A DNA stretch of 64,000 nt from Poseidonia sp. (GTDB taxonomy: Archaea > Thermoplasmatota > Poseidoniia > Poseidoniales > Poseidoniaceae), in the NCBI GenBank assembly GCA_965661285.1, contig CBFIDD010000003.1, positions 121,467 to 185,466 of the forward strand, given 5' to 3'. The notes below the pieces were generated by a model, which was given only the letters and a program-made list of their open reading frames with translations, was not told where the DNA came from and did no database searches. Positions 56,714 to 64,000 of the stretch are shown piece by piece; position 1 is the first letter of the stretch; each line of letters opens with the position of its first letter. Both the position numbers and the translations under genes were made by a program.

Positions 56714-58018
56714 TCAATCCTCTTCTTGTCCGATTTGCAGGTGTGCTTCAGCAACCGAATGGATTGATTTTCGTTTCGTGATTTCTTCCTCGTAGCATTC
56801 GTGAAGCAATTCCCGGTTGGTCAAGGTCAACACCAGCGCACCAATTGCAGGAAGAGCAAGCCCCCCAAGCGCAAGTGCCCAGGACCCAAACACATCGAAC
56901 ACGGGGCCCACCAACAACGGCCCAACAATGGTGCCAGCAGCCCATGCAGCACCGAAGACGCCGAAGGCAAGCCCGGGGTTACCCTCTCCAAGGGCACGGT
57001 TTGTGGCGGTGTCGATCATCGGGAGCATCGGTATTTGTGCGGCGGCGATGAAAAATTGGAACGAGCCCAGGAGCAGAATCATGCCCAAGATGGCCATCTG
57101 ACCGGACAAGATGTAGCCGACCAAGCCGACGCCCAGAAGCGAGACGACGACGAAGGACCAACCGATGAGCATGTACCTCGTCGGGCCGTTTCGGTCAACC
57201 CATCGGCCCCAAACCACCGAGCCGAGCCCCTGCATCAAGACCATGACCAAAAGAACGCCTCCAATGGCCGCCGAAGAGAGACCGAGGGCGTCATCAAGGA
57301 AGAGAGGAACACCCGCTTCAAGCGCCCCGGTGGCCAGGGTGGTGATGGCCAACAGCACACCGACTCGAAACAAAATCCGGTCGGTGAAGAACACGCGAAT
57401 CGACACCGCAGAAGACGTGTGTTCACGCGGTCCACCCACCACTTCCCTGGACGTCCACATCAACGGGCAGACCAACCCCGTCAGCAACGCCAACACGGTG
57501 AAGGCTGAAGCCTCGCCCCAGGTGAATAAAACGCCGCCAAGCACCGGTCCGAACAGCCCACCGATGGCTGCCATGCCGAGGAGTTTGCCCGCTTGCTCAC
57601 CAAATTTCGTCGGCCACAGTTGTGAGGCTGCAGCTAAGCCTGCGGTCATGATGGTGGCGCCGGATGCACCGTGCACCATCCGAGCAAAAGCGAGCAACAG
57701 AAACGGTCGGCCCACCCATTCGTTGGTCGCCACCACGTACAGGCCGCTTGACAAGGTCAGGAGCACCAAACTGACGAACACCGTACGGCCTGCGCCAAAG
57801 CGGTCGGTGATGCGACCGGTCAGTGGGCCAAAGAGGAGCAACGGGACCGCCCAAAGCGACACTAAAAGGGTGGCCTGGGTGGCGTTGAGGTCAAACTGTG
57901 TTTGCCAGGATGGTAAAATGGGGACGATGAACGCATAACCGAGAAAGTTGACGAAAAAGGCCAGCAGAAGCGCCAGAAAGGCTCGCTGGAGTCGTCGCTC
58001 CACCTCATGGGCATTCAC
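56714..58018 (-). CDS. MFS transporter
   Basis: Motif A GRITDRFG, repeated as GRWVDRNG; about 12 TMs; GTG start overlapping the upstream stop. Confidence 0.92.
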   Translation of the reverse strand: MNAHEVERRLQRAFLALLLAFFVNFLGYAFIVPILPSWQTQFDLNATQATLLVSLWAVPLLLFGPLTGRITDRFGAGRTVFVSLVLLTLSSGLYVVATNEWVGRPFLLLAFARMVHGASGATIMTAGLAAASQLWPTKFGEQAGKLLGMAAIGGLFGPVLGGVLFTWGEASAFTVLALLTGLVCPLMWTSREVVGGPREHTSSAVSIRVFFTDRILFRVGVLLAITTLATGALEAGVPLFLDDALGLSSAAIGGVLLVMVLMQGLGSVVWGRWVDRNGPTRYMLIGWSFVVVSLLGVGLVGYILSGQMAILGMILLLGSFQFFIAAAQIPMLPMIDTATNRALGEGNPGLAFGVFGAAWAAGTIVGPLLVGPVFDVFGSWALALGGLALPAIGALVLTLTNRELLHECYEEEITKRKSIHSVAEAHLQIGQEED

Positions 58019-59109
58019 TCTTCTTCCTCCGTTGCGGGAAGGGCATCAAGCATGTCCGCCGCAAGGGTGCTTGCATCCTCAACTTGGGTGAGCAAGGTCA
58101 AATCAGAAAGCGCTCCGGGGCGCTTCAACGCCTCCATCAAGTCCAAGAGAACCTCTGCGGTCAAGCGTGTGAGCGCCAGGGCCTCGGGGTCGATGCCCAC
58201 CTGCTGGGTTTCTTCGAGCAGGGAGACGTAATCGGGTTCCTCGGAGAGAATACCCTCCATCTCCGCTTCCACTTGACGGGCAATGTCCTGTGCCTGACGT
58301 TCGAGAATGTCCTCCATCGAGGAGCGCGGGCCGGATGCAAGGGTTGGTGTTGCCCCCTCACCGAGCGTGGTACCTTTTTTGAGGTCCTTGAAGGAAGGAA
58401 CGTTGGTCGATGCCTGCTGTTGCGGGGCTTTATCGCCTTGTACGACCGGTTCAGGACCGGGGGGTGGCCCAGAGCCAACCAGCCGGTTGAGAGCCAAACG
58501 CACCATCGTCGTCATGACTTCAGCGGAGAGACCGCCCTCGTCCTCGTCGGGGTGGTCCTCGCCCATCTCTTCGCGTATGGAAGCGATGAACGTGTCATCG
58601 ATGTTTCCACCCTCAACCAAGCGCTGGAGCATCGGAAGGGCCCACTGACTGTCGTTCATCGCCATGCCGACTTCAAAACGCTGACCGCCCAATCCCCCGC
58701 CGCCCGAGCCAGCGGAAACATCGGCTGGCGGCGGCACGAATTGCTTGGCAGCGTGTCGCCCGATTTGGCCGATGAGTTGGTTCATGTCAACCGGCTTTCC
58801 AATCACCTCTGCCACGCCAGCCAAAGCAGCTGACGAAAGAAATTCCGGGGCGGTGGTGCGAGAGAGGATGACGGTTCGGGTTGCAGAACGAAAGCGCGGT
58901 TGGCCGGCCAGGGATTGGCATACGTCCATCACGCTTCCTTGCCCCCATTCGCCCTCCAACAAGAGAACATCGGGAAGGACAGCACCCGCCGTCGCTTCGG
59001 TTTGGGCAAGCGTGCTCAGCCGGGTCACTTCGTACCCCTCACGCTCGAAGGTGTTGGCCAGAAGGTTGCGTCGACCTTCGTTTTCGTCGGCGATGATGAT
59101 GCTTGGCGT
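58015..59109 (-). CDS. Atypical receiver (REC)-domain protein with low-complexity and helical C-terminus; probable ACG start
   Basis: The frame continues upstream of the GTG at 59028 as (ACG)PSIIIADENEGRRNLLANTFEREGYEV, the REC beta1-alpha1; then PDVLLLE, VILS and IGKPVD. Confidence 0.7.
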   Translation of the reverse strand, partial: TPSIIIADENEGRRNLLANTFEREGYEVTRLSTLAQTEATAGAVLPDVLLLEGEWGQGSVMDVCQSLAGQPRFRSATRTVILSRTTAPEFLSSAALAGVAEVIGKPVDMNQLIGQIGRHAAKQFVPPPADVSAGSGGGGLGGQRFEVGMAMNDSQWALPMLQRLVEGGNIDDTFIASIREEMGEDHPDEDEGGLSAEVMTTMVRLALNRLVGSGPPPGPEPVVQGDKAPQQQASTNVPSFKDLKKGTTLGEGATPTLASGPRSSMEDILERQAQDIARQVEAEMEGILSEEPDYVSLLEETQQVGIDPEALALTRLTAEVLLDLMEALKRPGALSDLTLLTQVEDASTLAADMLDALPATEEEE

Positions 59110-59223
59110 CCTCGTCCCCTCCGTGGTGAAAGGAGGGACTCAGCGCCTTTGAATCTCACCCCGAGCGGGTCCACCATTGGCGGTGTTTTGGTCGACCAAG
59201 CGAGGGTGCGCGTGCGTGGGCGT

Positions 59224-63116: not shown

Positions 63117-63178
63117 AGGTCGGCGAGGGATGATTTAGAAGCGGGAACAAATAAGAACTAAACCATTAACCCCGGCCC

Positions 63179-63721
63179 ATGAAGGGCATTGTTTTCCGAG
63201 AGTTCATGGAGATGGTTGAGTCCACGTTTGGCGATGAAATGACGGAAAAATTGGTTCAAGACAACGACCTGGTAAGCGGCGGAGTCTACACCGCCGTTGG
63301 GACGTACGACCACCAAGAACTCGTGGCGATGGCCATCACACTCTCAAAAGAGACCGACTTACCCGTGGAGGCTCTTGTCGAGGCGTTTGGAAACTATTTG
63401 TTCGGGCGTTTCTTGGAGTTGTTCCCTGTGTTCTTTGATCACAAAACCTCATTTGAATTCCTCGACACCATCCATGATGTGGTTCACGTTGAAGTTTTGA
63501 AGCTTTACCCCGAAGCAACCCTTCCCGATTTCGTCAGTGAAATCAAAGACGACGGAAGAACCCTGCACTTTGAGTATCACAGCCCGAGGCATTTCGCCGA
63601 TTTAGCAGTTGGACTGATGAAAGGCGCGTTTGACCACTGGAACGAAACGGTGGAGATGACACGGGAAGACAAGGTCGTTGATGGAAATCAAGTCACCTTG
63701 TTCATCTGCACGTTGGTCTGA
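63179..63721 (+). CDS. Stand-alone H-NOX (HNOB) heme NO/O2-binding protein
   Basis: MKGIVF start, GVYTAVGTYDHQEL, FG..LF, proximal His in DVVHVEVLKLYP, conserved LP.F Pro and YxSxR (YHSPR); 180 aa. Confidence 0.93.
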   Translation: MKGIVFREFMEMVESTFGDEMTEKLVQDNDLVSGGVYTAVGTYDHQELVAMAITLSKETDLPVEALVEAFGNYLFGRFLELFPVFFDHKTSFEFLDTIHDVVHVEVLKLYPEATLPDFVSEIKDDGRTLHFEYHSPRHFADLAVGLMKGAFDHWNETVEMTREDKVVDGNQVTLFICTLV

Positions 63722-63736
63722 TGACGAGGACTCGCG

Positions 63737-64000
63737 ATGGATTTCAAAGAACTGGCAAAAATCGCCGCTGCAAGAAAAAAAGCATCAACCTCTACGCCCG
63801 AAGAGGAGATTCAACGCCTCAAGAAGACCGTTGAGCGGGAAAAAGCAGCACGGCGACAAGCTGAGGAAACCATTGAGGAGAGTTCGCGCCGTTTGTACCT
63901 GGCCAACCAAGAAGCCGCTGCATTGAACAAGGAACTGGAATCAACCCTTCAAGACCTCAACGAGACACTGGGGGCCCTCACCAGTGCGAAAGCAAAACGA
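63737..64000 (+). CDS. H-NOX-associated partner protein, N-terminal part (truncated by the window edge)
   Basis: Not in the ORF track. ATG at 63737 after GAGGA, open to the window end: MDFKELAK...RLKKTVEREKAARRQAEETIEESSRRLYLANQE..., followed by a coiled coil. Confidence 0.8.
   Translation, partial: MDFKELAKIAAARKKASTSTPEEEIQRLKKTVEREKAARRQAEETIEESSRRLYLANQEAAALNKELESTLQDLNETLGALTSAKAKR

Follow-up and report, generated by a model that had tools for sequence, protein, structure and literature searches.

A stand-alone H-NOX gene and its predicted membrane-hairpin partner in a Poseidoniaceae archaeon

H-NOX signalling and the archaeal locus

Characterised H-NOX proteins signal through histidine kinases, cyclic di-GMP (c-di-GMP) enzymes or fused chemoreceptors, and the examples listed in one review are all bacterial (PMC8738867). 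This report concerns a stand-alone H-NOX gene (63179..63721, + strand) and the gene that begins directly downstream of it (63737, + strand) in a 64,000-nucleotide (nt) stretch of DNA, G000:C3:121467-185466, which is called the window and lies on a contig of 333,160 nt (C3 of genome G000). The host is taken to be a Poseidoniaceae (Marine Group IIa) archaeon, from a group among the most abundant archaea of the surface ocean. The sensor and the docking helix of bacterial H-NOX systems appear to be kept in this locus and the usual enzyme replaced by an unannotated membrane hairpin, which suggests an undescribed form of gas-to-membrane coupling. The favoured reading, with a probability of about 0.65, is that a nitric oxide (NO) sensor signals via the docking helix and a continuous coiled coil into the membrane hairpin, with a non-enzymatic output. 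A full-text literature search, with supplements outside its reach, turned up no description of H-NOX from archaea, Marine Group II included.

The closest described systems are the HnoX-HnoK pairs, such as SO2144/SO2145 of Shewanella oneidensis and VCA0720/VCA0719 of Vibrio cholerae (PMC8738867). Like these, the archaeal locus has a stand-alone H-NOX of apparent NO type and a partner encoded directly downstream, with the same N-terminal helix motif (70 of 75 bacterial loci). It differs from them in the remainder of the partner, which has neither HisKA nor HATPase_c; its helix runs into a two-transmembrane (2-TM) hairpin followed by a TerB-like tail, and the protein is predicted to be membrane-bound. 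H-NOX proteins also work with diguanylate cyclase or phosphodiesterase partners, as in Legionella pneumophila, Shewanella woodyi and Paracoccus denitrificans (PMC8738867). In these systems the H-NOX regulates the product of an adjacent gene in trans, and the archaeal H-NOX may do the same, but its partner lacks GGDEF and EAL domains and the genome has no GGDEF match.

Fused systems provide further parallels. In the O2-sensing fusions of H-NOX to a methyl-accepting chemotaxis protein (MCP) found in anaerobes (PDB 1u4h), the H-NOX signal reaches a membrane-bound helical protein, and a similar route is predicted here. These fusions have a distal Tyr and an MCP domain, whereas the archaeal genes are separate, the distal Tyr is missing, no MCPsignal match was found, and the H-NOX matches 1u4h with an expectation value (E) of 4e-07. 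Animal soluble guanylate cyclase (sGC) is arranged as an H-NOX heme domain leading to a coiled-coil helix and then to the output, an order that the archaeal pair would share across two proteins. In contrast, sGC is fused, heterodimeric and soluble, with a cyclase as its output, and the archaeal H-NOX matches the beta-1 H-NOX only at E 8.3e-4.

A parallel outside the H-NOX family is the SiaC-SiaD system of Pseudomonas aeruginosa (PDB 7e6g), in which a small soluble protein acts on the N-terminal stalk of an effector: SiaC switches SiaD on by attaching to conserved motifs of its stalk (PMC8457831). The archaeal H-NOX may act on its partner in a similar manner. Moreover, in Bacteroidota homologues arranged as DUF6272-SiaC-effector, one of the swappable effector ends is the same coiled-coil and 2-TM (CC-2TM) hairpin as that of the archaeal partner. 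The differences are that SiaC (DUF1987) is not an H-NOX, that the stalk motif is another one, and that the characterised output of SiaD is c-di-GMP synthesis.

The H-NOX sensor

The H-NOX gene encodes an intact protein of 180 amino acids (aa) that matches the Pfam family HNOB (PF07700) over profile positions 1-162 of 163, with E 4.7e-38 and 131.1 bits against a cut-off of 25.5; this is the single HNOB match in the whole genome. In the H-NOX family, the proximal His is the heme ligand, a Tyr-x-Ser-x-Arg motif holds the heme propionates and a conserved Pro distorts the heme. A preliminary description of this DNA, made from the sequence alone, had recognised a stand-alone H-NOX with all three features, and each is present in the 180-aa protein (in IHDVVHVEV, YHSPRHFADL and EATLPDF, respectively). 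His103, Pro116, Tyr133, Ser135, Arg137, Gly71 and Gly145 are invariant in the 20 archaeal H-NOX sequences compared. The nearest solved structures are those of bacterial H-NOX proteins, 6ocv_A (E 9.5e-34) and 6bde_A (E 1.1e-32), followed by the Shewanella proteins 2kii/4u9b (~4e-18). His103 aligns with the His of IHDVIHLEV in the latter, and Pro116 and YxSxR align with the same residues of solved H-NOX proteins.

Residues near the distal pocket bear on the ligand. The preliminary description had placed a Leu of YHSPRHFADL at the site of the O2-stabilising Tyr, and this residue, Leu142, is likewise invariant in 20/20 archaeal sequences. By a count of residues, not by alignment, Leu142 would be the equivalent of Tyr140 of Caldanaerobacter H-NOX. 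At the position of Leu142, three solved H-NOX proteins of NO type have Phe, Phe and Cys, and none of the 20 archaeal sequences has a Tyr between Ser135 and Trp154. H-NOX proteins that bind O2 require the distal Tyr, and those without it exclude O2 and bind NO (PMC8738867). Because the distal Tyr is missing and Leu142 is invariant, the archaeal protein fits the NO-selective, O2-excluding type.

Some bacterial H-NOX proteins are heme-independent redox sensors that use a Cys/Zn site (PMC7108781, PMC12329717), and the zinc ligands of Shewanella H-NOX include Cys139 (PMC7108781). The archaeal H-NOX has a single Cys (Cys177) and Ala at the position of Cys139 (Ala140), so that a redox switch of this Cys3 zinc kind is absent. 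The genome encodes ALAD (E 3.3e-114) and the heme-copper oxidase subunit COX1 (E 1.4e-146), and the host can therefore make and use heme.

The partner protein

The preliminary description had reported a second open reading frame (ORF) 15 nt after the H-NOX gene. This ORF is present and holds EREKAARRQAEETIEESSRRLYLAN exactly as quoted. Between the H-NOX stop codon, whose last base is 63721, and the ATG at 63737 lies a spacer of 15 nt (63722..63736, + strand), which is consistent with an operon arrangement. The first 88 codons of the partner gene lie in the window (63737..64000, + strand), where the frame is open at the end. On the extended contig the full ORF (G000:C3:185203-185829 = L002:1204-1830) comes to 208 aa, with its end at window-equivalent position 64363. 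The expectation that an output domain would lie beyond the window was thus correct in that the ORF continues past 64000, but no kinase, cyclase or MCP domain is encoded there.

No Pfam family matches the partner at E <= 0.1 beyond chance coiled-coil matches, and no NCBIfam family does. Since the HisKA and HATPase_c domains of both collections are missing from the 208-aa protein, the partner is not an HnoK-type kinase. An AlphaFold2 model built from an alignment of 20 sequences has a predicted local distance difference test score (pLDDT) of 81.5. In this model, a short helix (residues 3-16) precedes a continuous helix (residues 21-116), which contains the motif common to bacterial H-NOX-linked kinases (residues ~25-60) and a coiled coil that extends to residue 88, still within the window. 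The remainder is encoded outside the window. Hydropathy places TM1 at residues ~89-111 and TM2 at residues ~120-143, and the model has a 3-residue turn before a helix of residues 120-150. A TerB/ENT-like three-helix tail of ~60 aa (residues 153-207) completes the protein. Hydropathy peaks over 19 residues reach 2.09 at 89-107 and 2.06 at 122-140, indicating two membrane spans. KAKR precedes TM1 and SRLAERN follows TM2, so by the positive-inside rule both ends of the partner are predicted to be cytoplasmic.

A partner that ends without a functional domain had been named in the preliminary description as evidence against a sensing module. The partner does lack any known family, but its hairpin is conserved and recurs in other signalling proteins at the place of the output (see below).

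Longer or fused forms of the partner were not found among 3,763 candidates, in a weak search that also missed the known forms of 419-434 aa. These long forms occur in three loci of genus g3 (L006, L007 and L011), where the partner has a long Pro/Ala/Ser-rich N-terminal extension that repeats (V/T/A)P(S/T/H)(L/I/M)xDL(F/L) ahead of the docking helix.

A putative docking helix shared with bacterial H-NOX kinases

The start of the partner had been likened in the preliminary description to the N-terminus of bacterial H-NOX-associated kinases and c-di-GMP enzymes, and a survey of bacterial loci bears this out for the kinases. The 75 bacterial loci used were drawn from the 80 matches, out of 585 confirmed ones, that most resemble the archaeal H-NOX. 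A profile of 20 archaeal partners, compared with 2,528 ORFs of at least 60 aa from these loci, gave 70 matches, one per locus. All 70 matched ORFs adjoin hnoX, 67 of them downstream and 3 upstream (~390 nt). The matches run via partner profile positions ~145-215 and lie at the extreme N-terminus of the bacterial protein. Of the five loci that gave no match, two show the motif by eye below the threshold. Domain scans of ten bacterial partners identified nine HisKA + HATPase_c histidine kinases, mostly hybrid, and one GAF-like protein. The consensus common to the archaeal and bacterial helices is L.R..RE+.AR..AE..lE..S..Ly.aNq.L. This N-terminal helix of the partner is the putative docking site for H-NOX.

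As of 2022, PMC8738867 records no high-resolution structure of an H-NOX with its partner. Prediction of a complex between the H-NOX and partner residues 1-92 gave a median interaction prediction score from aligned errors (ipSAE) of 0.51 (0.58, 0.35 and 0.51), whereas the best of three controls scored 0.00. At least 86% of contacts are the same from run to run, and the partner pLDDT is at least 78. In the calibration of this score, 58 of 80 solved complexes and 2 of 110 mismatched pairs reached the mark; scores at or below 0.60 accounted for seven of the 80 solved complexes and for both mismatches.

The hairpin module and its Bacteroidota relatives

The hairpin recurs well beyond H-NOX partners. 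Searching 1.84 billion representative sequences with the archaeal partner profile (A1) gave 14 matches below 1e-30 and many partial matches, which points to a modular protein. Profile positions ~175-280, corresponding to the CC-2TM segment, recur at the C-terminus of TPR, REC-PAS-PAS and GAF proteins and in small proteins of 160-210 aa. Alignment of A1 by hhalign with A3, a profile of 23 small Bacteroidota-like CC-2TM proteins, gave a probability of 99.4% and E 2.5e-21 over 100 columns, covering partner residues 49-148. Partner residues E106, E110-P111, K127 and P136 align with A3 residues E126, E130-P131, K147 and P156, and a motif SE..(I/L)EP..E is conserved. Among archaeal partners, the invariant hairpin residues are E106, F107, E114, K127 and P136. 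Within archaea, judged on the loci of the phylum sample, a hairpin-type partner was found only with the Poseidoniaceae H-NOX clade.

In a sample of Bacteroidota, 10 of 301 genomes have a match. What follows the N-terminal stalk of the small proteins varies here: a class III cyclase, HisKA + HATPase_c, GGDEF or the hairpin. SiaC-family and DUF6272 genes lie directly upstream in nine of 13 Bacteroidota loci. Operons of the DUF6272-SiaC-effector type are found at L134:502-2016 (G745), L135:331-1992 (G761), L138-L140, L142, L143, L145 and L146. Among the loci scanned for what the stalk ends in, L138 and L140 have a histidine kinase, L145 has GGDEF, and L134 and L135 have the CC-2TM hairpin; L137 combines the stalk with a class III cyclase, and no SiaC gene was found near it. 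Both the SiaC-like and the GGDEF proteins of these Bacteroidota have a match in 7e6g, the solved complex of SiaC with SiaD. Judged by their gene content, these SiaC operons are a partner-switch family with swappable outputs that include the membrane hairpin. Because the hairpin alternates with enzyme outputs on a SiaC-linked stalk, it holds the output position in a second, independent system, one where the stalk is the target of a soluble protein.

The host genome also encodes a 339-aa paralogue of the partner, outside the window at G000:C3:98073-99089 (+ strand; L108:1483-2499), which matches profile A1 at E 6.2e-64. Its N-terminal domain, ~150 aa long, is unannotated; the coiled coil, 2-TM hairpin and tail that come after it are the same as in the partner. 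This N-terminal domain is present in six of 200 other genomes of the family, five of which also have H-NOX. Since the domain is rare and occurs mostly in H-NOX genomes, the hairpin family seems to travel with the sensor; on the same counts, there is no support for a history in which a bacterial helix was grafted onto a hairpin protein native to these archaea and widespread among them. In locus L017, a protein with the paralogue N-terminal domain divergently adjoins the H-NOX gene. A more distant relative, P0134, has a GAF domain in the position of the N-terminal domain.

The tail and possible further components

The tail connects to TerB indirectly, through repeat proteins matched by that family. 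The corresponding part of A1 (positions 283-340) matches P0138 (3.9e-20), P0141 (3.1e-8) and P0154 (2.7e-9), and Foldseek gave weak ENT/EMSY-like matches for the tail with E above 2. Two proteins encoded outside the window contain TerB-like units similar to the tail: a PadR/Crp-like winged-helix protein with three such units (G000:C2:65669-66862, - strand) and a membrane-protein-like sequence with two (G000:C3:66969-67844, + strand). These two TerB-like repeat proteins are possible interaction partners of the tail.

Models of HisKA, GGDEF and MCPsignal gave 0 matches in the genome, which is 93% complete. HATPase_c gave three matches, to GyrB, topoisomerase VI-B and MutL. As models of the three known output classes matched nothing but DNA enzymes, no kinase, GGDEF or MCP output for the H-NOX was found in the genome. 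Three ORFs with a receiver domain were found, at 58015-59139 (- strand) in the window, C4:185912-186601 and C3:256542-256931. The first of these lies 4 kb upstream of the H-NOX gene and combines a Response_reg match (E 8e-8) with a long, acidic, low-complexity C-terminus.

Residency, distribution and origin

The genome is archaeal: contig C2 has a full-length small-subunit ribosomal RNA for which the archaeal model, at 1456 bits, wins the clan competition. The closest H-NOX genes in public records (64-75% identity) are from Poseidoniaceae, Poseidonia or Poseidoniales. The guanine-plus-cytosine (GC) content of the gene pair is 48.6%, compared with 56.6% +/- 3.0 for the genome, and falls in the lowest 1.8% of 1,200-nt windows. 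Across 18 related loci, the GC of the pair spans 34% to 63%, follows that of its own flanks and lies below them in 16. Because the dip recurs in relatives and tracks host GC, it is a property of the genes and does not indicate a foreign join; low GC as a mark of recent transfer was rejected on the same evidence.

Assembly data support this conclusion. Contigs from four public sequencing runs in two studies bridge the upstream gene, the H-NOX gene and the partner gene, although one of the runs may be the source sample. One public contig of 11,108 nt covers L002:1-2390, which includes the upstream gene, the H-NOX gene, the partner gene and sequence beyond, and another covers L002:1-1725. The chimeric join whose signature the preliminary description had proposed looking for in composition and coverage is thus nowhere apparent: the junctions are bridged, and the pair recurs in 20/20 related loci. 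The H-NOX and its partner are resident archaeal genes and not a chimera.

Within the family, HNOB was found in 21 of 201 sampled genomes (G000 included), which belong to five of 12 genera. In each of the 20 related loci the next gene 3' of H-NOX, in the same orientation, is the partner, with one partner copy cut by a contig end. The same pairing is seen in 5/5 named Poseidoniaceae or Poseidoniales records, four of which are non-independent as their H-NOX is identical to one of the 20. A quick maximum-likelihood tree of 113 H-NOX sequences, unrooted and with the bacterial set poorly resolved, groups the 25 Poseidoniaceae rows in one clade (96 in the Shimodaira-Hasegawa-like approximate likelihood ratio test, SH-aLRT) amid 75 bacterial sequences from many phyla. 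The best H-NOX identity outside Poseidoniales is 53%. The preliminary description had proposed a sensing module acquired from bacteria and operating in an archaeon. Its archaeal residence is established, but the donor and the direction of transfer are a matter of inference; a bacterial origin of the archaeal H-NOX would be the economical reading of these relationships.

Inside the family, the H-NOX tree departs from the genera, and the G000 copy is closest (85%) to that of a genome from another genus. Three Poseidoniaceae genomes (G014, G038 and G039) have two HNOB genes each. Given the discordant tree, the two-copy genomes and the non-syntenic flanks, the pair appears to be an accessory unit that is mobile within the family.

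The preliminary description had also suggested running the HNOB profile over archaea and building a tree. In this survey, 22 of 401 sampled genomes of the phylum score above the cut-off, several of them outside the family. H-NOX is therefore not confined to this archaeal lineage: other metagenome-assembled genomes (MAGs) of the phylum have HNOB genes adjoining kinases. The HNOB sequences from outside the family are distant from the Poseidoniaceae clade, and HisKA kinases adjoin them in at least six of 13 loci. Six loci from other families of the phylum (L120, L121, L124, L125, L127 and L129) have a divergent HNOB on high-GC contigs beside PAS/GAF-HisKA-HATPase_c kinases, three of which also bear the H-NOX-partner helix motif. 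These genes sit on short MAG contigs, which makes their assignment less secure; if the contigs are correctly binned, this suggests that other archaea acquired canonical hnoX-kinase pairs separately.

Proposed mechanism and alternatives

In the mechanism that we favour, the H-NOX would act as a cytoplasmic heme sensor and the partner as a small, membrane-anchored and probably dimeric transducer. Binding of NO to the heme would re-orient the two H-NOX subdomains and change the contact between the H-NOX and the docking helix. This change would then travel along the continuous helix into the hairpin, and possibly the tail. No enzyme would take part in the output, which would consist of altered ion conductance or an altered state of the membrane, or else of a binding partner being recruited to the membrane or released from it. 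We infer, that is, heme and NO binding, binding between H-NOX and partner, transmission from helix to hairpin, and the nature of the output.

If the hairpin is the output, the locus would represent a new mode of coupling a gas sensor to the membrane, and the module seen repeatedly in partner-switch, response-regulator and TPR proteins of Bacteroidota would gain a function. With proteins of 180 aa and 208 aa, the system is small enough for direct biochemistry. A bolder and more doubtful proposal is that the CC-2TM hairpin is an unrecognised, widespread output domain through which the state of a sensor acts directly on the membrane, for example as a gated ion leak or a shift in membrane potential, with no need for phosphorylation or second messengers. 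Its drivers would be H-NOX in Poseidoniaceae, SiaC partner switches in Bacteroidota and fused REC-PAS, TPR or GAF sensors elsewhere. The archaeal version would have arisen by replacement of the kinase core in an acquired hnoX-hnoK operon, in a host whose genome gave no match to kinase, c-di-GMP or chemotaxis-receptor models. On this proposal, these archaea would have an NO-gated membrane effector, through which NO derived from phytoplankton or nitrifiers could be linked to archaeal behaviour in surface waters.

Several points weigh against NO signalling into the hairpin. Its support is computational throughout, and no RNA sequencing run with the locus was found among the public runs searched. 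The hairpin has no known function in any protein; its presence where outputs sit is no proof that it acts as one, and it might do no more than anchor the protein in the membrane. Foldseek with the partner model gave 0 matches in the PDB at E <= 0.001, and the TerB-like label of the tail is indirect, with no match of Pfam TerB (PF05099) on the partner itself. The complex prediction is a weak pass, and by its calibration such a result is oftener wrong than right unless the pairing was a likely guess beforehand. A bacterial set chosen by similarity under-samples H-NOX types with other partners, and the equivalence of Leu142 and Tyr140 comes from residue numbering, not from an alignment. Finally, the pair is patchy and accessory, with no HNOB match in 180 of the 200 further genomes sampled from the family, and its flanks are non-syntenic (blastn and tblastx of the flanks found no match in 24 Poseidoniaceae loci).

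Other explanations accommodate parts of these data. The partner could be a mere tether or scaffold for the H-NOX, with the true output lying in another protein such as an orphan receiver protein, a respiratory complex or a TerB-like repeat protein. Such a role would suit a partner with no enzymatic domain in a genome that has three kinase-less receiver ORFs, one of them 4 kb upstream, and that also has TerB-like units in a winged-helix protein and a membrane protein. We nevertheless consider it unlikely, as the invariance of E106, F107, E114, K127 and P136 and conservation across domains of life exceed what an anchor needs, the Bacteroidota hairpin alternates with enzymatic outputs on the same stalk, and no candidate third partner is linked to the pair in other genomes. 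Alternatively, the hairpin could be a holin-like or defence effector that disrupts membranes and is restrained by the H-NOX, the pair forming a conflict or suicide module within the flexible genome and not a physiological signalling system. PHROGs gave 0 matches for the partner and two Bacteroidota homologues, no Pfam holin or SLATT family matches, and no phage or mobile genes adjoin the pair, all of which make this improbable. The patchy, non-syntenic distribution would fit such a module, as would the second match in Atlas, a Bacteroidota cluster auto-named 'Holin of 3TMs', whose score of 0.81 falls below the lead threshold of 0.9. The PADLOC matches that point the same way are weak, to the candidate systems PDC-S48 (E 1.4e-4, on the tail) and PbeC (E 4.4e-4); they lie in the tail or the coiled coil and leave the hairpin uncovered. 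Moreover, REC-PAS-PAS, TPR and GAF fusions and SiaC operons are typical of housekeeping signalling.

A different possibility concerns the sensor, which might respond to O2, CO or redox state, or might buffer heme or NO, rather than signal NO. Ligand specificity cannot be read with certainty from sequence, and the Cys/Zn redox sensing of some bacterial H-NOX proteins (PMC7108781, PMC12329717) provides a precedent. We regard this as having little chance of being correct: the distal Tyr is missing in 20/20 sequences, Cys177 is the sole Cys and Ala140 replaces Cys139, which leaves no Cys3 zinc redox switch, and a conserved docking helix with strict pairing favours signalling over buffering. Least probable of all, to the point of being negligible, is an assembly artefact or contamination in which a bacterial fragment was fused to an archaeal contig. 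The low GC of the pair would agree with an artefact, but the relatives show the same dip in step with host GC, the junctions are spanned by public contigs (with the reservation about one run given above), and the pairing recurs in every related locus, with the archaeal sequences in a single clade (SH-aLRT 96).

Flanking features

An intergenic leader, read from the sequence, lies 5' of the H-NOX gene (63117..63178, + strand). Within it, the A/T-rich AACAAATAAGAAC, ~30 nt ahead of the H-NOX ATG, could be an archaeal TATA-like element.

The 1.2 kb 3' of the partner gene is ORF-poor and gave no Rfam match at E <= 0.1 and no tRNA. It includes a low-GC stretch, L002:2368-2999 (= G000:C3:186367-186998), that begins ~0.5 kb 3' of the partner gene. 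Public contigs break within this stretch, where depth is 3-4x that of the flanks (83.7 vs 21.5, run X2), and it is likely a repeat or a sequence common to other strains. It also holds a 67-nt segment that matches C3:304113-304179, where an ORF has its 3' end, at 92.5%; the product of this ORF appears GST-like by eye.

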